Below are positions 3,001-57,805 of a stretch of 64,000 bases of DNA, piece by piece. The notes beneath the pieces were generated by a model. It made no database searches, was not told the origin of the DNA, and was given only the letters and a program-made list of their open reading frames with translations. Position 1 is the first letter of the stretch. Each line of letters opens with the position of its first letter. The stretch is from a virus. Taxonomy: Duplodnaviria > Caudoviricetes. The DNA lies in the IMG/VR virus record IMGVR_UViG_3300020049_006862, positions 46,205 to 110,204 of that record; one strand, 5' to 3'. Position numbers and translations under genes: made by a program.

Positions 3001-6000
3001 CCGGCAGTTGTTTCTTGAATAGAGTTACCGAAATAAACTGGTTTGTTTACCTTACCAAGTCCGTAAGCAGCACCGTAACCATTGTGTAAATCAGCCCATC
3101 TTTGAGCAGACATAAATCCTTGAGCATCGGTAGATTTGAAATCTTCGAAGAATCCTAACATCTCTTCTAATCTCTCAGGAGTAATATCTGGAATCAGATC
3201 TTTTAAGAAAGCTTCAATAACAGCCTTACCCCTCTTACGGTCATTGATTACGCCCATTCTAAACTTCTCTTTCATCCCTCCAACAGACTCGCCCACTAAA
3301 GGAGATTTACCTGGAGCAAGAATACCGGCCATACGCTTGACGATATCATCTTCACTTTTGTAAAGATTATAAGGTCCAGTGAATAACTGATTAAGGTGGT
3401 AAGAATTGACATACTCATTCATTACGAAAAGAGTGACCAATGGTTGATAGTACTTAGCTATTTCCTCTTCGTTATACTTAGGATTAGACTTCCTAACAGC
3501 TATGGATTTAGGTAAAGTATCTGGAACTTTTAATTCCTGTCTGAGCTGCGCCCCGACAGATTTAATTCCAAATATAGAACCATATAATGCTTCAATATTA
3601 GGAGCAAATTCAGCATTGTTATCGAGAAGCTGATTCATGTATTCAACTGCCTTAAGCTCTAATTGAGACATAATGTTGTCTACCAAAGCGTCTTCGGTAG
3701 CATTTTCTCCTAGCTGTTCAACAGCTTTATCGTACAAAGAGAACATTAAGTTCTTCTTCTTAGTTACACCAAGAATAGAAGAAAGATTTAACGGAGTTTT
3801 AACCTGTCTTACAGCTGCTTTTAAACCTTCTTTTACTTGAGCCTTGGTTAACACGTTAACTTCTACACCTGGAATACGCGGCTTATCTGACGGCTGGTAT
3901 AAGAAGTTTATATACTTACCATTCGAATTACTACGTAACATATCTAAAAAAGCAAAAGAGAACGCGCGCGATTCGAAGTGCGCAGAATTCTCATTAGTAA
4001 ATGTCTTTACAGTGCCGGTAGATTTATTATTAGAAGAATCGTGCTCAGCGTGTCCGTGTATCTTGTTAATACCTTTAACAAAGATGTTGTTCGAGAAGAA
4101 ATCAGTCTCTAAATGTTCAGGCCTATTTTCAGCCATAAACTCTAAACGACCAGTTGAACCTAAAACTTCTGAGTCTTTAGATTTAGTAAAGTATTCTACA
4201 ATCTTATAAAAATAAGACGAAGCAGAAAACTTATACATAGAGTTCTTGTCACCATTAAGAATTGAAGTCGGTCGAAGAGAGAGGCTTTGTTCTTTAGCAA
4301 GCTTAGATAAAGCAGCCATGAGAGAGAAGGAATCATTCAAAAATTCATCTAAATCTTCAGCTGGTTTAAGCTGCATCGCTCTCTTAGTAAAGAAACCAAA
4401 CTCAGTAATAACATTAAGAACTGTAGAGTTCCTATTCATATTAGGTTTGATTGGTTCAAATACATCAGTAAGCTTAAACGCTTTGATATAAAGGTTAGCA
4501 GCTCTAGCTGGATCAACAGCTTTCAGTCTTTCGGCTTCTTTCACATCTTCAGAAAGAGCAACCGAAGCAAACCCTTGTTTAAGATGTATAGCTTCAAGAT
4601 TAGCTCTAACATAAGAAAGATAAGATTTTTCTATACCATATCCAGATGCTTCTACATAGCTGAACTTCATTCCTGTCTCAGGATCTTTCTTACTCGGTAC
4701 AGGTACGAAGCGCTTAACAGCAATCATATATCTCTTCTCAACAAGTGATCCAATACTATTCTTAAGTTCGCGCAAAGTGTTACGAGCATTAGCCGCAGCC
4801 ATTTGTTCGTTAAACTCCTTAATATTAGTTACTATACCATCAGCAAGAAGCTTCTTATACAAAGACCGATAAGATCCGATGTGATTGTAGATGTACTCAG
4901 CATTTTGAAGTTTAGGAGAAGCGTAGCTTTCGTTCACTAAGTTAGCATCTTTTACTACACGAATTCTAGAACCATTAAACTTAGACTCTATAATGTGAAA
5001 TCTTACAGAAGGATTCTTTTGTGCTCCTTGAGCATCATGTACCAATTGATCTAACTTAGCCATAATAACCTTATCAAGACTTGCAAACTGTCCATCATTT
5101 GCTCTCTTTTGCTTCTGCCAATTGTCTAAATTATTAAGATCAAAGTTTTCGAGAATAAGTTGAGTTGCTACTACAAAAGTATGCGATGGGTGAATGTACT
5201 TATCTTTTGAAGCAAGGTTAGAAGGCTTGAATGGATTAGGTAAGAAGCTTAGAAACTCTTTGATCGAATCACTAAGTCTAGCCTCTTCATCCACCAAAGA
5301 TGAATCTTCAGTCTCATTCTTAAGTCCTTCAGAGTCTGAAGCAGTATCATTAAGAACAAAGCTTTCGAGTTCGGAGAAGAACTCAATTTCTTCTTTACCT
5401 ATTACTGATGCATTAGGATAAACAAGTTCTAAGAGAGTAAAGAACAGTTCTTTTCCTTCTTTATCTTGTTTAAGTAGCGCATCCAGTGCGGACAAACTCT
5501 TATGCTCTATTTCAGTTTTACCCTCTTTACGCGCTAAAGTTCTTCTCTGATTCTTCAAACTATCTAAGGCAGAAGTAATCATCTCTTCTTTGGAAAGCAT
5601 AAGCTTTGTTTCAGAGAGGAAGTTACCTTCTACGTGATTATTCAAGAAAGCATGAAGAGCATCGTACATCAAGTTCCGAGCAATGCGGAAGTTAATTACG
5701 CTACCAAAGTTAGCTTGCATAAATGCGGCAGTCTTAACATTCATGTTAGGAGCACTGAACTTATAGTCTTCATTCTTTGGCATTTCGTTCAAGTTATCTA
5801 CAAAGCCTTTCCAATTAGCGTTTACAAAAGTAGTCAAGGCCTCAATACGATTACGAAGTAAGTCAACCATGATAGGAAGATCCTTTTCGTACGTAATAAG
5901 TTCAGCTAACACCTTCTGCATTTCTATTGCACCTGCGTTACGGCCAATCATTCCTTTGTTAGCAAGCTGTACGAACAATTGATTCTTCTCTTCTATGGTA

Positions 6001-9000
6001 AGAACCTTGTTCCACATAGAATTGATTACCTCAAGAAGTACTCCTTCATAGTATAAAGGAAGTCTGTTAATAGCAGCCTTGGCTAATGCTTGAAAAGGTT
6101 TCATAATCGATCTAAACTTAGAAGGGTCTGGTCCTTTGGGAAACTCTTGAGCATACTTGAATACATCTTTAGTAACTGATTCAGATGTAGTGGCTTCAGG
6201 GAATAGAGCCTGAAGTACAGTCTTACCTCCTTCAGGAGTATATTCACGTATCTCTTGAATAATATCTATTGCTGATTTCTCAAGTGCCCAGAATTCATCG
6301 CCAGTTTGATCTTGAATCATTTCTTGTTGAAACTTCGCTAATTCAGCAATCTTTGTTGATTTTTCTGAATCGCTAAGATCGGTAGATGCTATTATCTCTT
6401 TAGCCTGTTCAAGTAAAATAGGATCTGTAAAGGTTGCTACTAAATCAAACGAAAGAGTAACTGGAGCAGTAGTTGTTGAAGGATCTAAGTATAATTTCAG
6501 AGCAGCTAAAGTCATGTCATAAACATTACTCTCACTTAAACCTAAGAATTCAAAAATAGCTTGTAATACTCTAGAAAGTAAATTACTATTCTTAACAGGA
6601 ATAGCTGATGCTACTTCAGCAAACTTAGGATTAGAAAGGTTAGCTACAAACTCTGCAATCGGAAATATAGCTTCATTATCCTTAGCTCCTTTAGGAATCT
6701 CAGTACCTTGCATGATTGTCTCCAAATCAAGATTGTTAGTTTTTACGTACTGTAAAAATATGTCTCTCAATTCAGTTAAACGCTCTTTCAATTCTTGCTC
6801 TTTTTGAGTAGGTTTAGGATTCTGAAGAGCCTTTATAGTTGCTGCATGTGTTAATTCGTGAGCATAGATTTCTCCAAATTTTAAGAAAGACTTTGCCGGG
6901 TTATAAACAATTATAACATTCTTACCGTCCACAAATGTTACAGCCGAGAAATCCTCAGGCATGGAATTGACATCAAGAACAGGTGTCATGAATACATTTG
7001 TAAAATCAGCCACAGCTAATGTTTTAGCTAATTCCTGCCCAGATTCAAGTTGAGAGGCATTACCTTCTGCCTTTACTTCTGCGTCGAATTGTAAGTTAAT
7101 TAAAGTTTTTCCTCACTGAGACAGATTTGATTCTAGAAATCTTGCACCTCCTCCGATAGTCGTAATAATTGGCAACTCTCAGTTCTGAAAGTTAGACCAG
7201 CCTTTGAGTTTTATTTCGATACGAATATCGCCTTTCCCTGTTTGAATATTTCCTAACTCTACATTAGGAATATTTCTCTCAAATCATTCAGTCAGAATAG
7301 TCTTTAAACTTTTACCTTCGATTGGCACATAATCGAAGGTTACTTTTTTAGTATCATTGTCATATCCTATTTCAAAGAAGTCTTGTATTTCTTCTGGTAT
7401 AAGCTCGTTCCCAACTTTGCTAAGTTCTTCCTGTCTTCTCCTTTCTATGTCATCTATTTTAGCATTATCTACTATTGGTTTAGCTATTGAGATAGATCCT
7501 GAATAAAGAGTAGGATCAACCTGAGTTAAATTATTCTTATCGTAATTCTTACGTATAGGAGTAACAACTTTAGGTTTAGCTGGTTCAGAAGGAATAGTAC
7601 TAAGACCTACAGTAGTAGGAGTAACTTTCTGAAGCCTTGAATGCATCAAAGAAGAAAGACGATCAATACCTTTAATGTTAGTTCCTTTTGCTACGTGACT
7701 CATATTAGAACCGGAGAAGTTAACTTCGTCTCTGTGAAGAGGAGTACGTAGCTTAGTACTTGTAGCAAGATTGACTAACGTTTCCGTATTGATCTTAGGA
7801 GTAGCTTCAGATTTAAATAAAGATTCTTCTAACTGCTTAATCTTCTGGTCAATGTCAACGTAATCTTCTTCCGCCACTTGCTTGCCTTTTACTTCACTAC
7901 TTAATCTTTCCATCATGCGTTTGATGATAAGGTTAGTAGGAAGCTTAACAGGTCTGCCAGCAGCTTTAGTTTTAGCAAGATCAAGATAAAGATCTTCAGC
8001 TTCTACTGGAGTTCTAACTCTATTAAGAATAGCTAATACTTCAGGAACAATATCTGAAATCAAAGCTTCACGAAGAGCGCTCCAATAATGGCCATCTGCC
8101 GCATTATCAGCGAAGAGAGATATACCAGTAATGACTTTGTTACGTCTAGTCCTAATAGCTATGTTCGGAACATTATCGTTAGCTCTAGCAACAGCATTAA
8201 TAGCAACTTGAAGAGGTGACTTAGAATAAGAGACTTTGAAGTCCTCGTAGATGTTGCCATCTTTATCAACAATAACATAATGCTTAGCGCCACCTTCTCC
8301 ACGGTGATCCATCTCCTCAGCAAAACCTTTGTTGTGCGCATAAATAGACTGCTTACCACCGCCTTCGAATCTTGGATTATCCTTTATAAATTCATCAGCT
8401 TCTTTAGCAGTGAATCTTACAGGACCAGGTTCTACATGGTAGATAACATTGAGCATCTCTTTAGGAATGATGCTTGCCAGCATAAAGGCTTGTCGTTCAT
8501 CTAAATTAATACCAGCTTTTTTAGCGGCTTCTATTACTAAACCTACAGCAGGTGCTTGAGTAACGTTGCGCTTATCCCCTTCTTTTTCAATACCTAATAC
8601 CTTAGAATACTCTTTCATGAAGTCATTAAAGATAACAGTACCAAGCTTGATCGGAGTTTCTGGCTGAATAACATTCGTAAAGAAGTTTTCCAGCTTCAGA
8701 AAGATATCAGTAGCTTTAGATATGGTCTCGATATAAGGATGATCAGGGGTCATAACATCTGGTTCAAGCTGTACAAATACAGATCCAGAGCCTTTACCAC
8801 TACTAACAACCATATAAGGAATACCTACTCTAGGTTCGAAAGGTCTCTTACCCGAAGTGTTCATTACCCTGTCCACAGTACGCATATAATCTTTCTTACT
8901 CTTATTAGAGTATATGATCACACGAGAATACTTAGCCATATCAGCTTCTATATTATCTGAAAGCGGAAGGTCTAAGGATTTAGCAATACCTAAGAAAGTA

Positions 9001-12000
9001 TCGTGTAAGCTGCGATTAACACCAGGTTCTAAGTAACTCTGATACTTAACACCAATGTTATTAGATTGAGACAACTGTAATTTCTTAACGACTTTACTTT
9101 CAACCAAATGGTTCATTGCGAATCCGTTGTCAGTATCGTTGATAATAATATTTCGCGTATCAGTTACTGCATCTGGATTTGGTGATAGCTTTGAAAGTGT
9201 AGGAGAGTTAGCAATATCTTCTTCTCCAAGAATACCTACTGTTATCCACTTACGATTCTCTCCATCATATACAGGTCTTTGCTCGAATTCAGTATCGCTA
9301 AGCCAAACTGTTTCGTACATAGGAGCAATAACATAGTATTCGTGAGAGAATCCTTTATTATTTCTTGGAGATTTTACAGGTACTATCCAAGCTTCTGAAC
9401 CAGGTTTTACTTGACCATTAAGATTAATTTTAAAAGAAGGATGGCGTAATTGAATACTTTCTTCTCCTTCTGGAGTATCTATCTTAGTAGGTTCCTGTAT
9501 TTCTGGCTCTGTATTAGGCGATGGTGGTTCAACTATTTCTACAACCTCATCCTCCGTTTCATCTTCAGCCGTAGCTGTAGGAGTTGGGGGAGGAACAATG
9601 ACTTCACCTTGTGCATTAGCTGTAGGAACAGGGGTAGGAGCTGCTGCCGCAACAGTAATGCCAGCAAGTTCTTTCAAAGCAAATTTTAAAGACTCGCGCT
9701 CATCATTCCATATCCTTAAGTTATTAGCTGTGTCTTCTGTTAAATTTTCTTTAGCATTTGCTCCAACATCAGTGATAGATGTCTCTACTCTAAAGTCAGG
9801 ATTAAATAAAACTACAGCTTCTTGTGCTCTGCCAATAGCAGTGTACATAGTAGAGTTGTAATCCATCTGTTCAGGAAATACTTTTCCGAAAGCGTTACCT
9901 TTATCTTTTCTAAGAAGAATATAAACCTCTTGTGCTTGAGGAGCTTGTGCCTCATAGTGGGTTAAGATCTTCAAATTAGGATCAGAATACCTTGCTCTAA
10001 GAGCTGCAACTTCTTGCGGAGTATTTACTATTACCATCCTAGTTCTTGAACTAGGTTTAGAAAGAATAGTATCCAAAGCATTCAGGGGAGCAGAGACAAC
10101 GCCGAAAAATCCATCTGTAGTCGGCATTGCTACAAGTTCTTCAGCAGCATGGGAGGCTACAGTATTGATCCCAGGAACAACAGATTGCTTATCCTTAAAT
10201 GATAAGGCAGCATTAGCAACAGAATTAACTGAAGTCCTATAAATAACTGATACAGACGAGGTATCTTTTGTTTCAGGATTGGAAAAGGAACCTAGCAAAA
10301 GAGTAATTTTAGCCTCGGCTGTTTGCTGTGAAGGATCACCAATAGCAAGAATTTTAATAGAAAGCTTTTTGGCTTTATTAATTTTATCGATTTTATTCAT
10401 AGCACCCAGCAATTCTTGGTTAGTGGGGGCCATAGCTTCATCGATAACAATTAAAGAATACCCGGCGACCTTATCATCATCCATAGCAAGGAACTCAGCA
10501 AGAGTCTTACCGTCTTCTTTAGATGTGTGCCTAGCTGCTCCTTCTGATCCTTCTTTATTATAAGCAACAGCAAGGACTTTCATATCTTTATTAAGCTTTG
10601 ACATAGCTTGAACTACTAAAGAAGCCACTAAAGAAGTTTTACCTGATCCAAGTACTCCTTTAATAATAGTAGTTGCCTGAACAATATCTTCTTGAGAGGC
10701 GCTAGTTAAACTAATAAGAGCTTCAGTAATAGCAACTAATTGTTGAGCAGAGGGAATGATTTGAGCTTTTGCAATGTAAGCATCAATTACTTCAGTAAGA
10801 GCTGCAAAGCTTTCAGCTGTAATATTGGAAGCTCCAATCCTAGCAATATCATCAGCTGCTTGCAAAGTAACAAGATGATTAGCTACTTCTTTAAGACGCT
10901 CTAATAGTTCTGGCGGAAAATTATCTGGATTTTGTTCTAAGTTGAAAATGAGTTTAGATAAACTTTTGTCTCTTTCGTACTCGAACAAGATGTTACCATC
11001 GTTTGCAAAGTAATGTTCAGAACCGACAACAGATGCCCTTAGAATATAAGGTCCGTACTTCCTAGGATTGTTAAACACTTTAGCGGGTGGGGGGAAGTTG
11101 ATCGGTTTTGCTTGAATAAGTTTAACAGTAGAATTCCTAGTATTAGCAACTAGAGTTGGAATATCGAATGCCCCCTTCTTAATAAGATGAATAAGTGTAA
11201 ACAAATTCCCCATAAAAGAATACGGAAACTTGAGACGCAGTTCAGCTATAACACGTGATACCTCTTCGTTAGGACTGTTCTTAAGCATCTGGGTTACTAC
11301 ACTCTCAAGCATCTGAGATTCCATAGTATGAGCTGTAATCTGAATAGCTCCTCTTTTGTTGAGGTTATTTTCAATATCAGCAAGGGCATTAGCCATCCGT
11401 TCGCTATAATTCTCTACGAGATCGGAAATAATTTCTTTATCCCGATCATTCATGTCAGTCCTATTAGCTGTTACTCTTCCTACTCTATAAATACGAGCGG
11501 CAAGCATTTGAGCTTCTTCTTGGCGAATAGAAGTGTTAGGATCATGGTTTTCAAGAAACAACTGAACAGGAGCTAGATACTGTGTAGCAAAAAGTAGAGG
11601 AAGTTTGTCCGCATCAATAGCACCCGCAGCATCAGTAACAGTGGCATCATTCTTTACTCCTCGGCTAATAAGATCTTTAATAGTAGATTCTCTTTGAGAC
11701 ATCTCAAGAATCATTGCGTTAGTCTCATCAATAGCTTCTTGAATTCTATCTAAGTCAAAAACGACATTTTCTGGGTCAGCGGCGTCAAAGAAATTATCTA
11801 GACCTAAACCTTCTGCCTCTTCAGCTAATCCGAACTCTGCAATATTTTCAACAGTAACTTGCGGATTAACAGTTAAGTTCGATCTGAATATGTTAAGGTC
11901 ACTAATTTGACTTTTAAGTCGGTCAACTTCTTTTAAAGTATTCTTAGCTTCTTCAGCTAACCTTACTCTAATATTAGAATCAGCTTCAAAAGCTGGATTT

Positions 12001-14324
12001 AAGTTTTGAAGCTCTTCATTAGATAGTTCCCCAAGCATAATATTACCATTAGTAGGATCTAGTGCTTGTTCTAACAAAGCGTTGTCTAATGCTGCTTGAC
12101 CAACTATTCTACCAGTTTCTTTCAGAATGGATTTAGTAGATCTAACAACAGCAGATTCTCTCGCTTCATACGAAGGAAAGGAATTTGAGATAGCACTTAT
12201 ACCTATTCCTAAGTCTGGAGGATAATTAATTTCAGACGTACCTTTAGTGGCGGCCTCTTCGAGTAAGAGATAATCTATATCTTTACGTCTAGACTCTTCC
12301 TCTATGGTTTTATCTGTTTTAGCATCTAACTTCAAACCTTCGTTTAGCAAAGAAAACGTAGGCATCATCTCTTTCTCAAAAGCTTTTTTGAAGGCCTCGT
12401 AATTCTTACCATCATCTATGCTACTTAAAAGTTCAGTAGCTTCTTGGCGAAGAAGATCAGCTTGCTCTCCTTGAACTCCTTCTAATGAAGCAAGTTTAGC
12501 TTTGGTATAGAATCTGTTTCTACGCAAGAAGGGAACAAATTTTTTAGACACTGCGTCATCGCTGATTTGATCTCTAGTCATACGAGAAGAGTCATCGTAG
12601 TAGTCTTCAATAAATTGATTTGCCAAATCCGGATTCTCTTTGATAAACCCTTCAATACCTAACTGCTTAGCAGTTTCGCCGTTAATAACCCCATCATACT
12701 GTATCAAATCTTGAAGATCTTCTTTCGAAAGTCCTCTTGAGGCAAGTCTATGAATATGAGCCGCAAGCATCATTTTTTTGCTGAAGTCCGCGTGAACAAC
12801 GTCGCCTTTAGACATAGCAAGATAAAACTCGTTAACTAACTTATTATTAGTTAGTGTAGCAATAACTGCCTCATTTACTTTAGCTGGATCTCTTTCTAAT
12901 TCGCCATTAGTATTTAAAAATTGAGGAGTTTTAGTACCGTCTGGTAAATCAGTAACACCAAAAGTTTTAAAGTCGTGGCCGAAGTCCTCAGTCATAAGAT
13001 TCTTAGAAACTTCGTTCTGACCTTTAAGAGTATTCCACTGTTTTTCAAATTGATTGACATTAGTCTTGAGTTTCTCGTTATCCCAACGAGTTTTCATCAG
13101 ACCCATACCACCACCAATCATACCGCCAAGCATAATAGCAGAAGCCGCTTCATCTTCAGCGCTTCCAGCAGGTGCAGCATAGCCTCCTAAAGTGGTCATA
13201 GCTTTTACAAAGTTGGCTGCATTTTTTCCAGCCTGGACTAAAGGTCCACTTACTGAGCCGTATTCTTTAGCATTACCTGAAGCAACTCTTTTCTCCCAGC
13301 TTTGAACTGCGCTTTGAATATTTTCTTCCCAAAGACCTTCTGAAGCAATGCCCATCCCAAAATTCTTAAGATAGCTTTCTGCGTTTGCTTTGTAAAGTTC
13401 TGAAGCAGACTTACCTTCTCTACGTGTTTGATCCCTTAGGGTCTTAACTTGATCTTTAGAGGCCCCATGAAAAATCTTCGATTGAAGAAAGTTTGGAGCA
13501 GTAAGAGCAATTAAGTTCCAGTTGTAAACACGAGCTGCGCCTTCTCCAGCTTTCATCTTCAATTGTTCCTGAACCTCAGGCGGAGCAGAAGCAAAAGAAT
13601 TAAATCCTGCTGTTTTAGCGTATTCTTCTTTTAAAGTGTCAAAAGCTTCTTTGCCTTCAGCGCCAGCTTCACTCATTGTGTTATAGACCGTAGTCAAAGC
13701 TGTCTGAGTATTTAGACCTGTAGCTGTATTTACTTTAGTAAGAACATCGGCTAACTTTTTACCTTGTCCCATACCGTTAAGTAACTTGGTAGCAGACCCT
13801 ACTTTAGCAGTCAATGTGGAAGGAACATAAGCAGAAGCTAAGAAAGCTAAGGCATCATACCCATCTCTAGCCCAAAACTCTGCAGTTCCTGCACGCTCTA
13901 AGAAGTTACCTTCAGCATATTGCCTAGAAATATGTACTGGAGCTGAATCTTTAATTCCTTGTTCTAAAGAATTAAAAGCATTCACTATCCCATTATCTCA
14001 AATATCATTTACTTTTCCTGGACCCATTGCCCATAGAGCGCCGCCTACATAACCTAGACCGGCACCTACTTTTGGCAGTATAGAAAGGCCTGCAGAAAAC
14101 AAGCCATTCACATGTTTCTTAAGAGCTGACTGTTGCTGTCCTCGATAGTACATTTGTTCTATCTCAGGACTTAACAATGAACCTTCGTAGACTGCGGAAG
14201 AGATTCCCTTATCATACTTTCCCAATTGTCTAAGCGGAGAGAATCCTGTGCGTTGGGCAGCTACATTAGTTGTGGGTCTAAGGCCAGATAAACCCTGGCC
14301 CGGACCTCCATTATTTTGTGTCAT
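1..14324 (-). CDS. Giant virion protein (>4770 aa, truncated at window edge): SF1 helicase-like domain + zincin motif + crAss-type virion RNA polymerase
   Basis: ORFs 13998..14324 and 7284..13985 join through in-frame TGAs at 13998, 7284, 7179 and 7113; the frame then appears open to position 1. Motifs: GVLGSGKTS / IVIDEA / AIGDPSQQ / YTAIGRA (~9820-10665), HELTH (6846-6860), GSDFDVD (DFDVD at 2067-2081, in frame). Confidence 0.88.
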
Positions 14325-43700: not shown

Positions 43701-45818
43701 CGATAAGAAGGGCCCAATGTGTTAAGCCTAATGTACCAGTGATCGCAGTTACTTTACGATTGTTAACGTTTTCACGAGAGAAGAAGATATCCATCAGATA
43801 ATCTTTCAAGCGAGAAACAGTCAAAGCAGAATTGTAATATTCGCAATTATTATTATTCAGTTAGAGTCGTTAATTCTAACTCGGGAATGGTTACCCAGCT
43901 CATAGTTTCCTATGAGATTAGACTATATCATTTTCCTGTAGATGTTTATCTAAGGAAATTTCTCATTTCGAGTCACTTGACTCTACTCCCTTTCGGGATA
44001 GTCGTTGAAGGTTCCAATCATAAATTTTTTCTATATGCTTAAGAAAATCTTTAGGAGATTTAGTATACTTAGCTAGATTACAGTTTTGACAACAAGGTAC
44101 TACATTATCTTGTATGTATCCTAAATTGTTGTCAAGTCTATCTATTCCAGTATAATTATAGGTCATTAGTGATGTTCTAATACAGGTATTAGTTGGTTTA
44201 TCTCCACAGTATACACAAGAAGACGAAAACAATTTCGCTGCCTCCTCTAATGATAACGTAAATTCTAAACCTCTGTTTTTAGCACTTTTCCTATATCTAC
44301 AATATATAGTAGAATATTTTTCAGCACTGTTCATCTTTTGATCTCTTAAGAAGTCGTATCTACATTTTTGACATCCTGCAAAGCCTAGCTTTGCTAATGA
44401 CATACACGCTCTTGAAACAAAAGTAGTCGGGCCTTTAGCTGTATTTCCACAAGAACATTTTAGTATATATTGTCCTTTGTGACCTATTACAGTAAATTCA
44501 CCTATTTTAGTGCCTATTGGATATTTCATAATTTATTTTTTAGCTTCCCTGCTGATTGCCCCTATTTTTAGAATTGTTACAGTTTATTGTATCTAAAACT
44601 TAGCGGGGGGTCCCAGCAATTAGAGAAATTATTCGATTACTATTACTAGTAAAAGGGACCAAATATTAATCCAAGAATCTTTAAGTTGTTCGCGTACACC
44701 TGGCAGTGTGTTGTTCCCTTTCGTTCGTTAAACGAAAGGCGTACTATCCAACTTTAAATAGTACTGCCTTATATTACTATAAGGATCAGGTCATATCACC
44801 TTCCTATTAGGAAGTTTCCCGTTTCGGATTCACTTGAATCCTACGCCATAAAGGCTGACCGTCGAACGTTCCCTTTTCAGGGCTTCGCTGCTGATTGTCC
44901 TCTTCATAAGAAGTAGGAGATCCCAGACAATTAGAGAAATTTGCAATATTGTATTACTACAATATGGGGCCCAATTTGACCCGTTTTGATCCAGTAGCCT
45001 GACTGCGAAGGACGAGTTTGCTTGATACCTAACCAACCTTGATATTCCTGAGACATGTACATTTCAGAGTACATGCGAGATTCAGCCATAGGAAGGAAAG
45101 AGTTAACTTTCTTCATCTTCTGAGTGTGAGGATCAGTGTACAGGAATTCTACGCCCAATCGGCCGCCTTCTCTCCAAGCTTTGTCAGTGATCGTCAGTTT
45201 CTGAGCGAATTCACCAATTTGGCTTTCCAGTTTGAACAGGTTAGGAGATTGTTGTGTACCGAAGTATGGGTTAGCTTCTTGCTGAACAGAGGTCCATCCT
45301 TTAGAAAATTCACGACCTACTTCCAAAAGTGAAGGAGGGCAGAAAACTGTAGGATTGTCACCTTGCAGTTCGAGGGTGTAGATGTAACCTGTGCCATCTG
45401 GAACAGAATCACCGATGATAGCCATCGGGTAAGAGTTATCTTCACCAAGCAGAACATCTGGTTGTGCGTAATAGTCGATGTCCAATTTTACACGGAAACG
45501 TGTATTGTTTAAGCCCGGAGCGTCGTTGCCTGCTTCGAGATTCTCGAGAACAATAGCAATACGTTCTTCAGCTCCCTGCATAGTCCAGCGGAACACATCG
45601 CTGTTGATCATTTGAACATTGCCTGGGTTGATACCTTGAGCAGTCAGCAATTTACCTGTGAACAGGTCTGACTGAGAAGAATAAATTTTTGTGAGGGTGC
45701 CCATGAATTCATGCGGCTTGCCCGTGTCATAAGCAGCGCCAAGATAATTGGAGTCGATAAAATTACCCCCAAATCCTTGGTAGTGCTTGATAATCATGTT
45801 ACTTCTAGCGCTAGCCAT
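40706..45818 (-). CDS. Major capsid protein, six exons (489 aa spliced)
   Basis: Exons 45818-44979, 44703-44669, 43843-43725, 42929-42802, 41903-41580, 40729-40706 sum to 1470 nt, in frame: KTG|PGVREQLKDSWI|EYYN...GTLGS|IMFH...THY|YGPEG...TRCG|ELIYDFD*. Confidence 0.88.
40730..41579 (-). mobile_element. Group I intron 5 of MCP (850 nt)
   Basis: 5' exon ends in U, intron ends in G; P7 GCATA/TATGC; candidate internal guide AATTT-GCCTCAG lies near the 3' end of the ORF. Confidence 0.8.
40865..41551 (-). CDS. Intron-encoded HNH homing endonuclease
   Basis: CSCG, CSYCG, NGVDRIDSSKGY...NVAPSCKFCNRAK. Confidence 0.85.
   Translation of the reverse strand: MLKLKKQPKNFVESEMYNTTDYKEFIGLKYNELTVLSFPGYTLKKDKLKDYKIPVVEVKCSCGTIFKVQWDAVKNLKSKSCGHIHKFYYTDPYDCDVRGLYVRYRARAKKDNREFTITQDEFRSLIVSPCSYCGIKPSQIHRKTNCQASIPHNGVDRIDSSKGYVQGNVAPSCKFCNRAKSNSSLEEFNNYIIRLMKFASVKNRAKTVNGEIPNTVLSSEITKGSETV
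41904..42801 (-). mobile_element. Group I intron 4 of MCP (898 nt)
   Basis: P1 CACTAT/GTAGTG with U.G; TTGCTGGGA...CAATCAGCAG core; P7 GACTA/TAGTC; terminal G. Confidence 0.85.
41984..42664 (-). CDS. Intron-encoded LAGLIDADG homing endonuclease (226 aa, code 4)
   Basis: SMILGDG and LAI-W(TGA)-YMDDG motifs; second TGA near 42206; stop TAA inside the intron core. Confidence 0.85.
42930..43724 (-). mobile_element. Group I intron 3 of MCP (795 nt)
   Basis: P1 GGCT/GGCC; CTGCTGGGA...CAATCAGCAA core; P7 GATCA/TGATC; terminal G. Confidence 0.85.
42991..43617 (-). CDS. Intron-encoded HNH homing endonuclease (208 aa, code 4)
   Basis: N-terminal extension LGKLTI...GT-W(TGA)-EVQCSCG; CLYCG, NGVDRMDN, CCNVCNYMK. 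Confidence 0.85.
43844..44668 (-). mobile_element. Group I intron 2 of MCP (825 nt)
   Basis: P1 GGAT/GTCC; TTGCTGGGA...CAATCAGCAG core; P7 GACTA/TAGTC; terminal G. Confidence 0.85.
43918..44529 (-). CDS. Intron-encoded HNH homing endonuclease
   Basis: CSCG, CVYCG, GIDRLDNNLGY...NVVPCCQNCNLAK; ends at 43963 (TGA) or 43918 under code 4. Confidence 0.85.
44704..44978 (-). mobile_element. Group I intron 1 of MCP, ORF-less (275 nt)
   Basis: P1 GGGT/GCCC; TTGTCTGGGA...CAATCAGCAG core; P7 GGTCA/TGACC; terminal G. Confidence 0.85.
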
Positions 45819-49222: not shown

Positions 49223-52200
49223 CTATAAAAAATTGTCACTCGTTATACGAGCGTTCGGGAATACGAATTTATTAGCCGATATAAACTTGGTGATATCATC
49301 CACAATTTTACTATCTTCTATAATTGTTTTCTTGTATTGATTATGGGTTTCTATTAACCCTACAATACACCCCATGAATCCCATTATGGAGTCAAAGTTG
49401 CCTTCTAAATTAAAGGCAGCCATTTCTTGTAACAAGGCCCTGTCTCAGATAAAATCTATATTTCTATATGTTCTATCGTCCCTCTCAAACTTAACTTCAA
49501 GTAGCCAGTCGCGTATGTACTGAATGCCTTCCATCTTCATAACTCTAGAAGACATCGGATAACCATAAGTTACCGAAGGCCCGGTCATAAAAGATGCTTT
49601 CTTATTAAAGATAGTAGTAGGTTGTTTACAAAGCAAGTCTAACCTCTTTATCTTTTCGAAATACTCCTTCACGTTACCACGAACATTTTCGAAGTAGATC
49701 TTTGCGTTACCATAAAACAAAGAAAGCTTGTGAAGTATATCGTTCACTATATGCCTTCCCGCGTAGGGCCTACCTCTATATACTGCAACCAATTCAGCCG
49801 AGCCAATCGTAGAGGCGTACTTCTCCGTCTTAAGAACAAAGATAGTACCTAACGAAGAGCCTGAAGCATCATCACTTGCGTAAGGGTCATGCCCAATGAT
49901 ATAAGCTCCTGGAGGAACTTTACCGTCGATAACTTGAGGAAATTCGTAAACAACAACGCAACCTTCGCGGTTGTCAGTATTCTTGATAGGAAATGAGTTA
50001 ATCGGCTTAAGCTCGTTAGTAACATCTATCTTATAATCAACACCATTAGTGTCTTTTGCTTCTGGGTTAAAGAAGAGAGTAACTCTCTTCTCCATCAAGT
50101 TTAGAGAATCGGCGATATCAATCTGGTCAAGCCTTGCTCGTACTTCTGCTGTTGGAAATATATTACCTGAAGCAGAGAGAAACATTTCTGATGGAGTGAG
50201 AGGTCTGTTAATAATCTCAGCATCGAGTGCTACTGAAGCATTCTTTGCCTTCTTAAGTTTTGTTCTGTGAGCTTCCAAAAATCCCCTAGCAACTTCTACA
50301 TCAGTAAAGCCATTCTCATCTTTGAATTCATTCAAGCCAAGATAAGCAGGTACAAAGTACCCAATGGGGGAAGATCTCCATTCGTATAAATCGGGAAATT
50401 CTAAGCAATCGTAAGTCTCTGGATTGAAGAATATTTTTTGAGCGGCTAGGGTACCGCCCCCTGCCATATCCCCACCAGTTCCGATGAACATCATCGAACC
50501 AAACTTACGAGCACCATCTCTTTGAGTCTCTACGCAAGCTGCGTAAGTCTCTTCTAAGTTGTCAAAAAACCCTACCTCCTCAAACAGCAAAACCCCTGGT
50601 CGCGTACCATTGGCAGCGAAGGGGTTATCTTTGAAAGTTCTATTCTTAATAGTGGATTGAGAACCTACTCTTTTCCAAACTCCACCTACCTTTTTTGGAT
50701 AGTGAGCTTTTATTTCTTTACCTGGATCAAAAGATCCGGCCCATTTCTTTGCGAATGGTGCGGGGTAAGTTTTCTTTCCTATTTGACTAGTTCCCGGAAG
50801 GTTATCGAGAGCAATCTTAGTTTTTTGTAAAGTTTCTGAAGAGTATTTGGATTCGGCTGCACCGACTACTATTTCAGAAGTAAGAATAAATTCTGGATTT
50901 ATTTCGTATTTGACAGCTCCGTCAAATAGAAATTCGTGAGCGACTATACCAACACCAAGAGAATAAGATTTACCTAGCCGAAGCCCCTACTGTTCCCGGT
51001 CATCGTATAGTCTCTTAAACAATACGAATGATCTTGATCGGTTTCCACTCCATAATATGGAGCGTCAGTTGAGGCTTCGATTCTTAAACTTGATATTTTA
51101 TAATTCTTAACAGGATTAAAATCAGTTTTTTTCCTGTGAATTTGAACTGGTATCTTATTAATATCTCCAGATATTGTAATTGAATATTCTTTAGTGTTAT
51201 GTCTTTTACGATATTTAAAATTCGTATGAAACCCTAAAGAATTAGCTAATTCTTGAACTTGCTTAGCAAATCTTCCGTCTGCTTGATAAAATCTATATGC
51301 AGATATATCTAAAGTACCGTCAGTATCTAATAACCCTGCCAAAAGTTTCATTCTAACTTCTATCGAGTTGTTTAGGTATTCTTCAGGTATATGTTTATTG
51401 CCTAAAACTCTTAAACTTTTCAAAGAGTCAATAATATAATTCTTATCTTTTATAATATTTACTTTATAATTAGAAGAATTGGCATTTGACGAATAATTAT
51501 TCGAATACATAGATAATTTCCCCCCTATCTCATCTGCATATCTAGATAAGAAATACACAATTTCAATATCGGAAGTCGTAATAATCCTACTGTCTCTGTG
51601 CCCGTCTCCAAGCCATATACCTAAAAAATAAGGATCAAGAGGCACTTCTTGGTAAGGTAAGTCTACAGCATCTCTTTTAAATCCTTTATACCTGTTATTA
51701 AAGTGTTCAGTACATATACTGTTCTGTATCTCAAAGAGCTTCTCAGCTTTTATCTTTGTTCTTTTTCCTTTATCGAGAATTTCTAGCTCATGATCATGCG
51801 TAACGCTATAATCATCACCATTTGATTGACATACTCTATACATCCTAGCTTGTGGTCCACGAATTGTTCTTTTTACAATTCTAGGAACATCGTCTATACC
51901 CATTAATTCGTCCCCAATATTTATATCCTCAATGTTTTTGATACTGTTGTCGAACATGCGGACTTGAGTACCAATAGGATGACAGCCAAGCATCATCATG
52001 TTCTTGGCATCATTATTAAACAGAGGGTAACCAAGTGGCTGTTCTCTAAGCATCCGAAGATTTTCTCGAGCAGGAATATACCTTTTAAGTAATCCATTTT
52101 CAGGATTAATAGCATCAGGATATTCTTTAAGAACTGCTGCCGGGGGCTCAGTAATACCTAAGGCTTCCATCTCTTCTACGAAGCGCAAAGAGGTGAATTG

Positions 52201-52497
52201 GGTGTCTTCGGAAAACGACGAAAAGCCGCGAGCCTCGGCCCAATTGTAGAATAACTCCCACTCAAGGTCACGAAGATCCGGCTTTCCGAAGTACGGGCTA
52301 CGCCCGCGCTCTTTTCGTTTAATAGTTCCAAAATTAATATAGAAGTAAAGTTTACCCGGCATATATCTGCCGTGTGCCCAATGACCTTCTATACATCTCT
52401 TTTTTTGTTCCCGCCAAAAGGAAACAAAAGCAGGAGATAATGGATGATAGTTTGGTATGTCAACAATAAACTCACGAGGATTAATACTCGTAATCAT
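49223..52497 (-). CDS. terL: Terminase large subunit with intein, a frame break at Walker A, and one TGA
   Basis: N-terminal FWREQKKRCIEG / LYFYINFG; G|intein|SRGFG then TAG 50974; GKSY resumes in another frame; LFEEVG, IGTGG, IIGHDPY, YFEN, GNFD; TGA at 49445. Confidence 0.85.
50992..51984 (-). mobile_element. Intein with LAGLIDADG endonuclease (331 aa)
   Basis: Starts CHPIGT, has VTHDH block B, FLGIWLGDG and LLAGLLDTDG, ends TGN followed by Ser. Confidence 0.9.
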
Positions 52498-54100
52498 TAT
52501 TTTCTTCAACATATGGCGCTTCTCCAGAGGATATAATTCCATCTGTGAGCGCGATCATTGACGCTACTGAAGCAGCATTTTCCAAAGCTAATCGCAATAC
52601 CTTAGTAGGATCAATGACTCTACAGTCTTTAACATCTACATATTCCATTTTATTCACATCGAATAATTCGTTGTGAGTTTGGATGTGGTTACGAACTACT
52701 TCAGAGTTAACACCAGCATTAGCAAGTACGGTATTGAAAACACTTACAAGAGCTTTTTTAACACAATCAGCTCCAGCTTGTAAGACAGGTTCAACATCGA
52801 TAGCTGAAATAGCGTCGAGGTAAGAATACCCGCCGCCAATCGAAACACCTTCTGTAATTGCAGCTTTTGTTGCTTGCAGCGCATCGTCTACCCTATCTTT
52901 CTTTTCTTTTAGCTCTACTTCTGTATGAGCACCAAGGTTGATAACAGCAACTCCACCTGAAAGTTTTGCGATACGCTCAAGAAGTTTTTCTTGAACCCAT
53001 GCAAATTCGTTATGAGAAGCAGTTTCTAACTCAGCTTTCAAATTATCTAATCTCTTAGAAATAACTTCTTCAGCGCCTTTTCCACCGACAATACTCGTCT
53101 CGGAACGGCTTACTGAAACATTTGTTGCGCGGCCAAGATGTTTAAGTTCTACATCTTTAACTAACATTCCGGAATCCTCTGAAATCAAAGTTGCACCAGT
53201 CACGGCAGCGATGTCTTCTAACATTGACAATCGGCGATCACCTTGCGCTGGAGTTTTTACCGCACATATATTTAGACCCATTCGTACTTTATTGACTACC
53301 AGTAGGGAAAGTGCTTGCGCCTCTACTTCATCTGCTATAATTAGCATCTGACCTCCTGCCTGTACTACCTTTTCAACGATAGGCACAATTTCAGCTCCTA
53401 CGCGAAGTTTACGATCTGTTACGAAAATGTAAGGATTTTCTAGTTCGCATGTGAGCTTATCAAAATTATTTACGAAATGTGGAGATATCAATCCTCTGTC
53501 GAATGAATATCCTTTGGTTGTAGAAATATAATCTACAGTTCCTTTAGAATCTGCTACTGCTACCATGCCGGTAGTTCCTACTTCCTCCATTGCCTTACGA
53601 ATAAGCGCAGCAATAGCAGGATCGTTATTAGCAGATATATTTGCAATTTGTTCTACCTTGTCCATATCATTTCCGATAGAGGTAGAATTTGCTTTTAGAA
53701 ACTCGACCACTTGAGTTGTGGCGATGTCGATGCCTCTTTTTAAGTTAATGGGTGAGACTCCCATTTCAATTTGCTTTAGTGCGTTATCCAAAATCGCTTG
53801 AGCAAGAACTAAGGAAGTGGTTGTTCCATCTCCTACAGTTAATACAGTTCTAGCAGCAGCTTGAAGAGCCATTTGAGCTCCTAAGTTTTGTGCTGGATCT
53901 TTTAGCGAAATATGTTTAGCTACTGTTACGCCGTCTTTGGTCACATAAGGTGTGCCGAAAGAAGTGCGAAGTACTACGTTTCTTCCCTTTGGGCCTAAGG
54001 TAATCTTTACCATATTAGCCATCTGATCGACACCTTCTTTCAAAAGTTTGCGAGCAGCAGAAGAAGAATACAAGTTTGTTGCTTCTCTGATTGGTACCAT
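52481..54100 (-). CDS. groL: Phage chaperonin GroEL
   Basis: TLGPKGRNV, VTKDGVTVA, GDGTTT, ISANND, ERIAKLSGGVAVI, KKDRVDDAL, VIDP. Confidence 0.97.
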   Translation of the reverse strand: MVPIREATNLYSSSAARKLLKEGVDQMANMVKITLGPKGRNVVLRTSFGTPYVTKDGVTVAKHISLKDPAQNLGAQMALQAAARTVLTVGDGTTTSLVLAQAILDNALKQIEMGVSPINLKRGIDIATTQVVEFLKANSTSIGNDMDKVEQIANISANNDPAIAALIRKAMEEVGTTGMVAVADSKGTVDYISTTKGYSFDRGLISPHFVNNFDKLTCELENPYIFVTDRKLRVGAEIVPIVEKVVQAGGQMLIIADEVEAQALSLLVVNKVRMGLNICAVKTPAQGDRRLSMLEDIAAVTGATLISEDSGMLVKDVELKHLGRATNVSVSRSETSIVGGKGAEEVISKRLDNLKAELETASHNEFAWVQEKLLERIAKLSGGVAVINLGAHTEVELKEKKDRVDDALQATKAAITEGVSIGGGYSYLDAISAIDVEPVLQAGADCVKKALVSVFNTVLANAGVNSEVVRNHIQTHNELFDVNKMEYVDVKDCRVIDPTKVLRLALENAASVASMIALTDGIISSGEAPYVEENNDYEY

Positions 54101-54252: not shown

Positions 54253-54268
54253 TTAAAAATTAATTTAG

Positions 54269-54724
54269 TGGACATGAAGGGAGTTGAACCCTTGTATCTC
54301 ATATAATCTAATAATATATGTTTATAGGTTTAGGTCGAGAAGTATAGAGCAGGATTCGAACCTGCAGTCAGCATTTATCAAGGTGTTCCTACTATCCTTG
54401 TTTATGCACTGACGCCCTCGGTTATTAGGGCGTGTACACCATGTTCCACCTCCTATACTTCTACCACAATTTAAAAAAGGAGTGTACCGAAGCACACATC
54501 TCCACCACCCTATTTTGCTTAGAATAGGGAAACTAGCGTATGTATAATCAATCTATTTCTGTTTCGAGGTTAGACAACCCAAACTGTTCTCGAATAAGAG
54601 AACGAGTAAGACGAATACGAATATTTGCCGTTTGTTGTTCAATAGACATTGATAAGTCACTATACTATTATCGTGACACCTAAAATATATCCTCAACCAT
54701 ATAAGTCGATTCCATTACATGCCC
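54269..54724 (-). ncRNA. ssrA: tmRNA
   Basis: 5' GGGCATGTAATGGAATCGAC; 3' AAGGGTTCAACTCCCTT-CATGTCC-A; acceptor stem with G3.U; helix 2 CTTATAT/ATATGAG; pseudoknot GTCAC/GTGAC + GATAA/TTATC; candidate tag frame 54629-54570; CCA not encoded. Confidence 0.85.
54338..54462 (-). ncRNA. tRNA-like cloverleaf nested inside the tmRNA gene
   Basis: AGAA-GTATAGG/TCTATAC-TTCT stem, D arm GTG-GAACATGGTGTA-CAC, GCCCT/AGGGC arm with 8-nt loop, long variable arm, T arm GCAGG-TTCGAAT-CCTGC. Confidence 0.75.
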
Positions 54725-54936: not shown

Positions 54937-55121
54937 TCTAACTCTTCAAGCAAAATAGCCAAAGTAGCTGGATGTAAAATAATCATTATTTTTTAATTTT
55001 TTTGAAGTGCAGACTCCCTTAAATACCATAAGCAAAAAAAGAGGAGCCTGCCCTCGATTAGATAAAAACAGATGAAGCCCCCTAAGACAATGGTTACTTA
55101 TCCAGAGGGACTTCACTGCTT

Positions 55122-55223
55122 TGGCACGTCACATAGGAATCGAACCCATATAGTCTAGCGGTTGGAATGCTAGCGCGTACTGTTTTGAAGACAGTTCCCG
55201 TTCCGTAACGGTTAAAGTGACGT
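55122..55223 (-). tRNA. tRNA with UCA anticodon (opal decoder), long variable arm
   Basis: ACGTCAC/GTGACGT-G-CCA; ACTGT-CT-TCA-AA-ACAGT; T arm ATGGG-TTCGATT-CCTAT; D arm CCGTT-ACGG-AACGG. Confidence 0.9.
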
Positions 55224-55235
55224 ATTTTAATTGTC

Positions 55236-55295
55236 GGATTGAGGGAGTCGAACCCTTTATACTGCGCCTCCCGTTTATAGGGTAGCAATCAATCC
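55236..55295 (-). ncRNA. Truncated tRNA-like element
   Basis: GGATTG/CAATCC stem plus AGGG-TTCGACT-CCCT T arm and one central hairpin; no D arm, no CCA. Confidence 0.5.
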
Positions 55296-55306
55296 TTCCT
55301 AAATTC

Positions 55307-56672: not shown

Positions 56673-56987
56673 TTAGCCTTTGTTCTTCAGGATGTCGATA
56701 ATGCCTTTTACGAAATTGAACAATTTCGAAGCATTAGTAAGAGCCCACCAAAAAGTAATTTTAGTAGGGAATTCTAGCGTAGCCATCAATTCTGTGATCT
56801 CACGTACAATGGCTTGAATTTTTTCTTTAAGAGTCTCGTTCTCCGCTTTCAGAGAAGAGACTGTTTTAGTAAGATAAGTATTCTGTTCAGTTAGGAACAG
56901 AACTTTCTTCTGAGCCTGCGCAGCTTCCTGCTCAGCTCCTAATACCAAAGCATCAGGTGCTTTAGCTTTATTTTTGTTCTGACTCAT
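56673..56987 (-). CDS. Coiled-coil protein with amphipathic C-terminus (104 aa)
   Basis: Intact ORF coupled to neighbours. Confidence 0.55.
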   Translation of the reverse strand: MSQNKNKAKAPDALVLGAEQEAAQAQKKVLFLTEQNTYLTKTVSSLKAENETLKEKIQAIVREITELMATLEFPTKITFWWALTNASKLFNFVKGIIDILKNKG

Positions 56988-57363
56988 AGGTAACTAATTT
57001 TGCTTGAATTTGTGTTGGTGTTACAAGTACGTACCCTTCATGATCAGAATACGAGTTTTGTTTGTTGAGAAAAAATGCCTGTTCACGACCTTGATCTGTG
57101 ACAAGTACGAAATCTCCAATTTCTAGAGGCATAAATTCCTCTACTAAAGTTTTCGCAGATCGTTCAGATATCGCTACTATTTTGCCGATATTAGAGTATT
57201 CTCTATTTGAGAGAGGGGAGACAGGTCTACCTCCATCAGATACTCCGTTCTGATATTCAGGAATAATTAGTCCTCCGGCAGTTTTGGCAAGTGATAGCGG
57301 CTCCAATTTAAGAAGGATGCCACGCATCCCTAGAGGGATGTAATTATCTACTGTTAGTTGCAT
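56968..57363 (-). CDS. groS: GroES-like co-chaperonin (131 aa)
   Basis: PLG..ILLK, mobile-loop-like KTAGGLIIP, GKIVAI, LEIGDFVL; likely start MQLTV at 57363. Confidence 0.7.
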   Translation of the reverse strand: MQLTVDNYIPLGMRGILLKLEPLSLAKTAGGLIIPEYQNGVSDGGRPVSPLSNREYSNIGKIVAISERSAKTLVEEFMPLEIGDFVLVTDQGREQAFFLNKQNSYSDHEGYVLVTPTQIQAKLVTYESEQK

Positions 57364-57805
57364 ATTTAATACTTTTATACTTAGATAAGTGTTGAAAAAT
57401 ATGTTTCGGGATTTTTTTACTAGAAAGATCTTTTTGCGATCTTCTGTAAAAGTGAATCCACGCTTTGTGTCTGTTCTTAAATATGAACGAGACAAACCTC
57501 TTATGATCCTCAGAACCTAATCTGGCTTTTCTCAGAGCTTTTCTTATAAGAAAGAAGAATTTTCACGGAGATCTTATATGTATCCTACCTATTCTAGGTA
57601 AGTCTGCCGATAAGATTGAAAGATCTTCCATGCCCTCTCTAATTAGAGAGTAATGATGTTCAACGATAGAAGAGGCTAATTCCGGAGAAATGTTAAGCTT
57701 CTTTGCTATCTTCTGATATAGTTTCTTCTTCCTTACCTGGGTCGAACGAAAATACAAAAGAGAATGCTTTCTTGCTTTCATATGCTTGAGCGACTGAGTT
57801 TGCAA
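57344..57805 (-). CDS. HU/IHF-like DNA-binding protein (code 4, start uncertain)
   Basis: LYQKIAKKLNIS...LPRIGRIHI; continues through TGA 57563 to TAA 57344. Confidence 0.5.

Follow-up and report, generated by a model that had tools for sequence, protein, structure and literature searches.

A phage tRNA(UCA) with a second, CCA-bearing hairpin in a crAss-like genome with UGA at tryptophan positions

Introduction

How is a tRNA with the anticodon UCA charged, and with which amino acid, when it joins the long variable arm of a class-II tRNA to an acceptor end of the tRNA-Trp type? This question is raised by a 102-nt gene in a viral record from IMG/VR, IMGVR_UViG_3300020049_006862, positions 46,205 to 110,204 of which make up the 64,000-nt stretch of DNA that was analysed here (the window). 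Phages in which TGA is recoded to Trp ('code 4') and in which a suppressor tRNA(UCA) is found are described in several reports, and include crAss-like phages, Agate, Jade and others (bioRxiv 10.1101/2021.08.26.457843; Yutin et al., 2021, PMC7886860; PMC12386605, on zeta crAss-like phages). In these reports, suppressor tRNAs are undetected in most TGA-recoded genomes, and non-canonical structures are suspected; Borges et al. (bioRxiv 10.1101/2021.08.26.457843) detected suppressor tRNAs in only ~35% of TGA-recoded phage genomes and left open both the cause and charging by the host synthetase.

A first-pass annotation of the gene had proposed a new class-II opal-Trp tRNA, possibly charged by a phage synthetase, or else ambiguous decoding of UGA. 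In this study, the fold of the tRNA, its homologues in viral contigs and the use of UGA in its genome were analysed, and the possible function of its extra arm was considered.

Methods

In-frame TGA was translated as X, and the frames were aligned to relatives fetched via homology of the large terminase (TerL) and the portal protein. Relatives at the tRNA locus were reached by portal alignment. A covariance model was built from the window sequence alone and was used to find homologues in viral contigs. As the 5' half and the extra arm came out misaligned when the family was aligned with MAFFT alone, a model-guided alignment was used instead. IMG/VR contigs were also scanned with the pattern CTTCAAA, 25-45 nt, GGTTCGATTCC, which fixes both the anticodon and T loops and requires a long spacer, the interior of which is left free.

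The tRNA gene and its fold

The gene lies on the minus strand and reads, part by part from its 5' end, ACGUCAC, UUUAA, CCGUU-ACGG-AACGG, GA, ACUGU-CUUCAAA-ACAGU, ACGCG, CUAGC-AUUCCAACC-GCUAG, ACUAU, AUGGG-UUCGAUU-CCUAU, GUGACGU, G and CCA. Its minimum free energy (MFE) fold is a four-arm cloverleaf with an extra arm, and the centroid fold agrees. The parts are the following, in window coordinates.

55122..55223, minus strand: tRNA(UCA) gene, 102 nt, from sequence, MFE cloverleaf, homologues and covariation; the CCA end is encoded at 55122-55124 and G73 at 55125
55217..55223 with 55126-55132, minus strand: acceptor stem, 7 bp, ACGUCAC with GUGACGU, including A1-U72; from the fold, with 7 of 7 pairs changing on both sides in the family
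55212-55216, minus strand: linker UUUAA, 5 nt, unusual, preceding the D arm
55198..55211, minus strand: D arm, 5-bp stem CCGUU/AACGG and 4-nt loop ACGG, from the MFE fold
55179..55195, minus strand: anticodon arm ACUGU-CUUCAAA-ACAGU, with the anticodon UCA at 55186-55188 (TGA on the plus strand)
55155..55173, minus strand: extra (variable) arm, 5-bp stem CUAGC/GCUAG and loop A-UUCCAAC-C, from the fold and family covariation; putative pseudo-anticodon arm
55133..55149, minus strand: T arm AUGGG-UUCGAUU-CCUAU, with a third-position G.U pair that is conserved across the family
55041..55055, minus strand: terminator-like hairpin GAGGGCAGGCUCCUC followed by a U run, 67 nt past the 3' end of the tRNA; a consensus match only, six such hairpins being found versus 1.5 expected in shuffles

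The D arm is joined to the anticodon arm by GA, and the extra arm is flanked by the connectors ACGCG on its 5' side and ACUAU on its 3' side, so that the spacing from the anticodon stem to the T stem is 29 nt, of which the extra-arm hairpin takes up 19 nt. The decoding loop CUUCAAA on its 5-bp stem is canonical, with U33, the anticodon UCA and a purine, A37, at position 37. Both the MFE fold and the family alignment with its covariation give an acceptor/T geometry of 7/5. The length, the anticodon, this geometry, A1-U72, G73, the 4-nt D loop and the 29-nt spacer had all been reported in the first-pass annotation and are confirmed by sequence and fold. The selC-like D stem described there is indeed long and carries a 4-nt loop, but it has 5 bp here versus 6 bp in selC. 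A D arm of this type recurs in five other members of the tRNA family described below (L053, L168, L150, L025 and L167), and the remaining members have an ordinary D arm.

The folding energy of the tRNA is by itself unremarkable (z = -1.56), and the structure is accepted because relatives support it. No tRNA was called in the window by ARAGORN, and a search with the Rfam tRNA model (RF00005) did not reach E<=1 at the locus. The best Rfam family was tRNA-Sec (RF01852), with 26.2 bits (E = 0.025) versus a gathering score of 47, and its alignment breaks three acceptor pairs by forcing an acceptor stem of 8-9 bp. A scan for sigma-70 promoters around the tRNA gave matches no better than those in shuffles. 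Samples that contain the phage come from freshwater or wastewater, and among public runs none of RNA is listed with the locus.

UGA in the source phage

The window is the final 64 kb of a 110,204-bp record that is estimated to be 66% complete. Genes for the muzzle, a crAss-type capsid, the portal, TerL and GroEL identify a crAss-like phage, and the portal is only ~30% identical to published crAss-like phage portals; the source virus is a distant crAss-like phage. A GroEL search for syntenic loci returned no close relative in viral contigs, and GenBank phages gave distant GroELs only.

When TGA is read as sense, the minus-strand genes tile end to end. In-frame TGA is present in 41 of 70 long ORFs and accounts for 21% of TGA and TGG codons together, with a TGA:TGG ratio of 47:148 in the virion block versus 1:29 in the block that bears the tRNA. 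Of 30 TGA columns in alignments to relatives, 13 have W as their commonest residue and four have L, the next in rank; S, G and C are commonest in none. The 17 columns in which W does not lead are at variable positions or precede the real start codon. Where one relative has TGA, W is found in other relatives. In PolA, the Klenow residue at X600 is the Trp of ...AVDAWLQ..., and that at X94 is a Lys, at a variable position. The column of the sole TGA in TerL is likewise variable (P 15, W 6, Y 6, K 6, others), and no homologue of the TGA-rich, 745-aa protein P0002 was detectable in five relatives. Because TGA columns align with W in relatives and PolA X600 falls on the Klenow Trp, UGA is taken from these alignments to be Trp in the source phage. 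The alignment of UGA with Trp claimed in the first-pass annotation is thereby borne out, and its alternative, UGA decoded as Ser or ambiguously, finds no sign in the 30 columns, Ser being commonest in none.

Two observations on individual reading frames may be added. In a GATase-domain gene of the replication block (L127:16976-18550 = G000:C1:34976-36553), a TGA lies six codons before TAA (...DKQ-TGA-WKPTET), and TGA may still be a stop, or a leaky stop, in some early genes. An open frame of ~6179 codons, with TGA as sense and five in-frame TGA, covers 3-14324 of the window (minus strand) and continues upstream to G000:C1:41995; it presumably encodes a giant crAss-type virion RNA polymerase or a tail-associated protein.

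Other tRNAs, synthetases and release factors

ARAGORN and Rfam called a single further tRNA in the 110 kb. As its anticodon is ACA, the tRNA(UCA) is the sole reader of UGA found. The ACA tRNA, at G000:C1:8416-8490 (plus strand) and outside the window, is nominally a tRNA-Cys, with an 8-bp G-1:C73 acceptor like that of tRNA-His; an alternative register of its anticodon loop yields UAC, and it may be mis-decoding or otherwise odd.

No gene of the TrpRS/TyrRS family (PF00579) was found in the 110-kb genome or in five relatives, four of which are >=90% complete. The phage synthetase envisaged in the first-pass annotation therefore has no candidate among these genomes. The search for release factors that it called for was run on the 110-kb genome, where no gene with an RF-1 domain was found. 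Since a third of the source genome is missing, absences from it are provisional; the complete relatives make the absence of TrpRS firmer.

The extra arm and its family

The loop of the extra arm carries the anticodon-loop sequence of tRNA-Trp: a U equivalent to U33, the triplet CCA (55163-55165, TGG on the plus strand) and an A equivalent to A37. In the window the loop has 9 nt, or 7 nt if it is taken to be closed by an A.C mismatch, and the position that matches 38 is C rather than A; it is for these reasons a less exact copy than the loops of most relatives. The arm had been annotated as a selC-like variable arm; rather than a generic arm of the selC or Ser type, it reproduces the anticodon hairpin of tRNA-Trp and carries CCA in its loop.

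The covariance model detected homologues in other viral contigs at 28-67 bits. In an alignment of 15 sequences, which was fitted to the model's own structure and is biased in favour of that structure, 95.9% of cells are paired and two-sided changes occur at 24 of 27 pairs. The observed covariation score was matched by 0 of 500 shuffles, and slid controls pair at 42-48%. Within the extra-arm helix, two-sided changes are seen at all five pairs, paired cells amount to 98.5% and the loop stays fixed. Furthermore, RNAalifold gave the same four standard helices when applied to a plain MAFFT alignment of five members. A freshwater metagenome contig (single, of low depth) matches in the tRNA alone, its flanks being different; there, the extra-arm stem is changed on both strands and the loop change gives UUCCAAA.

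The IMG/VR scan, in which the interior of the spacer was free, returned 12 distinct long-arm UCA tRNAs with 7/5 geometry and G73, all 12 of which have TCCA in their variable region, and 23 distinct 8/5 tRNAs of the Sec type, of which one has it. A hairpin search unconstrained by motif placed UCCA in the loop of a 4-7-bp hairpin, the loops being UUCCAAC, GUCCAAA, CUCCAAA or 9-nt versions such as CUUCCAAAA. The 7-nt core UUCCAAC of the window is also present in L053 and L026. A second, narrower pattern that itself includes TCCAA matched 76 contigs, from which 58 distinct tRNAs were obtained. Among these, 52 different extra-arm stems occur, the loop is 7 nt long in 41 and 9 nt long in 14, and GUCCAAA and CUCCAAA prevail as loop sequences. 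G73 is present in 56 of the 58 and A1-U72 in 45, with G1.U72 in ten more, and an AGGGG.../...CCCCU-G acceptor is kept in many family members.

On sequence evidence, the putative pseudo-anticodon arm thus defines a phage tRNA family with at least 58 distinct members. All of them share the loop motif UCCA, the loop of the family being delimited as N-U-C-C-A-A-N within 7 or 9 nt, and the window tRNA shows the other family features as well: a canonical UCA arm, 7/5 geometry, G73 and a second hairpin of 4-7 bp before the T stem. A tRNA of the same type is found at the same neighbourhood in relatives defined by their portal (L134/G001, L137, L150, L167/G003 and L168). One relative of the same clade, G002/L138, has an ordinary tRNA(UCA) with a short variable loop and no extra arm, which indicates that the arm is dispensable in the clade.

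Variants of the gene were also observed. The G003 family member (L167:3346-3441), which was missed by ARAGORN, has the T loop UGCAAGU instead of UUCGAxU. In L157 and L162 the 3' half alone aligns, the CCA extra arm included, and the 5' halves of these tRNAs may be split off by an insert or intron. A DNA similarity search of the tRNA region against GenBank phages gave no match, and neither did an exact-pattern search with the anticodon stem of the window tRNA. For an amber counterpart, a CUA suppressor with a Gln pseudo-anticodon, a guessed pattern (TTCTAAT..GGTTCGAATCC) returned three tRNA-shaped matches, none of them convincing, and none was seen in the loci fetched for this study.

Elements near the gene

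Several other RNA and protein elements were noted around the gene. A tmRNA (RF00023, 49.2 bits versus a gathering score of 47) lies at 54266-54724 of the window, 400 nt downstream of the tRNA(UCA) and on the same strand. It was not called by a default ARAGORN run; the relative G001 also has a tmRNA beside its tRNA(UCA). A 64-nt tRNA-like minihelix lies at 55232-55296 (minus strand), 8 nt upstream of the tRNA(UCA). It has the acceptor GGAUUGA/UCAAUCC, the T loop UUCGACU on a stem of 3-4 bp, one central hairpin and the 3' end G-ACA, with no recognisable D arm or anticodon loop, and it is absent upstream of the tRNA in seven relatives.

Genes for GroEL and a weakly GroES-like protein (52481-54100 and 56968-57495, minus strand) flank the RNA gene cluster; GroEL is at the same position in relatives, and that of L124 has an intein-like insert of its own. 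The large terminase (49223-52542, minus strand) contains a Hint and LAGLIDADG intein, and the relatives' homologues, of 1000-1500 aa, have the same intein domains. A group I intron (RF00028, 61.8 bits) at 44767-44988 (minus strand) splits the gene for the major capsid protein into an N-terminal part (44931-45818) and a C-terminal part (43918-44529).

Proposed mechanism

Two hairpins of this tRNA could in principle be its anticodon arm. In every family member the UCA arm follows the D stem after 1-2 nt, which is the canonical position of the anticodon arm, whereas between 1 and 5 nt separate the CCA arm from the T stem, depending on the member. The UCA arm is accordingly identified as the decoding arm and the CCA arm as the extra one.

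The results support a class-II-shaped tRNA(UCA) with acceptor identity of the Trp type in a genome with UGA at Trp positions. The new class-II opal-Trp tRNA that had been proposed for this locus thus stands as regards its shape, its acceptor and the codon positions that it serves, and is unsupported as regards a phage synthetase. By a narrow preference, we read it as an opal-Trp suppressor tRNA whose pseudo-anticodon arm recruits the host TrpRS. From the loop and the acceptor end we infer both the charging with Trp by the host TrpRS and the role of the arm as its recognition handle.

According to this mechanism, the tRNA would descend from a tRNA-Trp: it would have kept G73 and A1-U72, as its relatives keep the AGGGG.../...CCCCU-G acceptor, and it would have gained a second hairpin at the site of the variable arm that reproduces the tRNA-Trp anticodon stem-loop (5 bp, with the 7-nt loop UUCCAAC). 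The host TrpRS would normally read C34-C35-A36 plus G73, and the extra arm would present CCA to it as a pseudo-anticodon. Charging with Trp by the host enzyme could then be efficient although the decoding anticodon had become UCA, C34 being given up for UGA, and the Trp would be delivered via EF-Tu, as by an ordinary 7/5 elongator tRNA. The UCA arm would read the in-frame UGA of the phage's own genes, mainly those of the virion. A phage synthetase would be unnecessary, since the host TrpRS would charge the tRNA via the CCA pseudo-anticodon. That the arm restores or strengthens recognition by the host TrpRS would be the simplest account of three features taken together, namely a loop that is strictly conserved, a stem that varies freely and an occurrence on Trp-type bodies only. 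The chances appear evenly balanced that features read by the synthetase and features read by the ribosome have been separated on one tRNA in this way, with the pseudo-anticodon arm as the relocated element.

The handle model has two weak points, geometry and necessity. Within the L shape of a tRNA, a large distance separates the true anticodon from the tip of the variable arm, and the anticodon-binding domain of TrpRS would reach the tip of the extra arm only if it docked differently, if a second subunit or a dimer took part, or if the fold were rearranged. Class Ic synthetases, e.g. bacterial TyrRS, approach their tRNA from the variable-arm side, for which reason contact between TrpRS and the extra arm is conceivable. 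As for necessity, UCA suppressors without the arm exist, and according to Borges et al. (bioRxiv 10.1101/2021.08.26.457843) TGA suppressor tRNAs that lack such an arm are tryptophanylated in E. coli.

Alternative explanations

These two weak points are also what speaks for a rather doubtful alternative, in which the tRNA is a true Trp-inserting opal suppressor and is charged through G73, A1-U72 and U34-C35-A36 alone. The CCA hairpin would then serve something other than TrpRS: its loop could be acted on by a host enzyme that modifies anticodon loops, divert a tRNA-Trp-directed anticodon nuclease or another defence as a decoy, contact a sensor, or form a tertiary contact that stabilises the core. 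A related recoded phage is served by a class-I tRNA(UCA) without the arm, the tryptophanylation of TGA suppressors in E. coli is stated by Borges et al., and by general tRNA geometry the tip of a variable arm is distant from the normal anticodon site. However, the loop copies exactly the nucleotides read by TrpRS, on a hairpin that has the size of an anticodon arm (5 bp and 7 nt), and it occurs together with G73 and A1-U72 while being scarce in Sec-type long-arm UCA tRNAs (1/23); moreover, the analysis yielded no candidate for the nuclease or the sensor. That the CCA arm acts on a T-box or as an attenuation decoy was considered and set aside, as the Bacteroidota, which are the hosts of crAss-like phages, are not known for T-box control. 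The equal size of the two hairpins would also allow a tRNA with two states, in which either hairpin serves as the anticodon arm and either CCA or UCA is held at the tip of the L for TrpRS and perhaps for the ribosome. In the window copy the 5-nt connector ACUAU after the CCA arm does resemble a class-I variable loop, but elsewhere (e.g. L023 and L089) this connector has 1-3 nt, less than a normal variable loop needs; the UCA arm is always at the canonical place after the D stem, and MFE and centroid predictions converge on one structure. Such switching is thus improbable.

Charging by SerRS, with UGA read as Ser or ambiguously as Ser and Trp, is more improbable still. The arms of tRNA-Ser are not known to have a 7-9-nt loop and two 5-nt connectors, whereas the arm described here has both, the connectors lying on its two sides. 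A long variable arm and G73, which are bacterial Ser identity signals (PMC7609411), are both present in the window tRNA, and G73 rules out LeuRS and TyrRS; the acceptor stem is nevertheless Trp-like across the family, and Ser is commonest in 0 of 30 TGA columns versus 13 for W. Least credible is descent from tRNA-Sec (selC) with use of SelB, or an inactive tRNA-like relic. The tRNA does share UCA, G73, the long arm and the long D stem with a 4-nt loop with tRNA-Sec, which is also the best Rfam family (E = 0.025). However, the score of 26.2 bits versus 47 comes with broken acceptor pairs in the RF01852 alignment and the true geometry is 7/5; this geometry and the score below the Rfam threshold indicate that it is not a working tRNA-Sec. 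TGA at many ordinary Trp positions in 41 ORFs would fit poorly with SECIS-dependent insertion, and a relic is hard to reconcile with the strong covariation in all five helices. An opal-Trp suppressor with a pseudo-anticodon arm for the host TrpRS is therefore kept as the preferred reading.

Comparison with known systems

Like the suppressors of other code-4 phages, the window tRNA is a phage-encoded UCA tRNA in a genome whose TGA codons lie at Trp positions and are concentrated in virion genes; as in most such phages, there is no synthetase of the phage's own and the tRNA lies in a TGA-poor block. In the searched text of the code-4 phage papers (Borges et al.; PMC7886860; PMC12386605), a long extra arm or a second CCA hairpin is not described. 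The window tRNA, which was missed by ARAGORN and by the Rfam tRNA model, is an example of the non-canonical structures suspected there.

The window tRNA shares G73, A1-U72 and 7/5 geometry with bacterial tRNA-Trp(CCA) and with the tRNA-Trp(UCA) of code-4 bacteria such as Mycoplasma, and many members of its family also share an AGGGG-type acceptor with them. However, these bacterial tRNAs are class-I tRNAs with a variable loop of 4-5 nt, whereas the window tRNA has a variable region of 29 nt and is missed by general finders. In tRNA-Trp(CCA), moreover, C34-C35-A36 is in the anticodon, whereas here UCA decodes, CCA has moved to the extra arm and the D arm is non-canonical. With bacterial tRNA-Sec (selC, RF01852), the window tRNA shares its anticodon UCA, G73, the long variable arm and a D stem that is extended and capped by 4 nt; tRNA-Sec differs in its 8/5 geometry (a 13-bp acceptor/T helix) and 6-bp D stem from the 7/5 geometry and 5-bp D stem of the window tRNA, which scores below the gathering score. 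In the same IMG/VR scan, 22 of 23 Sec-type tRNAs were without TCCA in the variable region, whereas the window tRNA has the CCA loop and serves Trp positions. Allo-tRNAs and selC* tRNA-Cys (Mukai et al., 2017, PMC5389517; PMC7609411) are also long-arm tRNAs from metagenomes, some of them with UCA, but their geometry is 8/4 or 9/3 and their identity Ser, Ala or Cys, in contrast to the 7/5, Trp-type body described here.

The nearest parallel is synthetic. Mukai (2020; Int J Mol Sci 21:7793, PMC7590224) engineered a pseudo-anticodon into the V-arm and thereby enhanced aminoacylation by HisRS variants with an added anticodon-binding domain. As in the window tRNA, the variable arm of a suppressor ends in a copy of the cognate anticodon arm; that design has an allo-tRNA (9/3) chassis and His identity, whereas the arm in the window is natural, is borne by a Trp-type body of 7/5 geometry and would need to function with the host TrpRS in its unmodified form. 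Full-text searches of the published literature found no description of a natural tRNA with a copy of an anticodon in its variable arm. Phage suppressor tRNA(UCA) and TGA-to-Trp recoding were already known; the natural anticodon-copy arm is new, as far as the literature search shows.

Implications

Since this architecture hides the tRNA from standard finders, recoded phages probably carry more suppressors than have been reported. The extra arm also suggests a concrete way in which Trp identity could be kept after a change of the anticodon. If the proposed mechanism is true, phages would rewrite a stop codon with one RNA gene and the unmodified TrpRS of the host, and a pseudo-anticodon of natural origin would add a new kind of identity element to those of tRNAs, the only precedent found being synthetic (PMC7590224). 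It could then be of use in genetic-code expansion, in the design of orthogonal suppressor tRNAs and in the annotation of recoded phage genomes.
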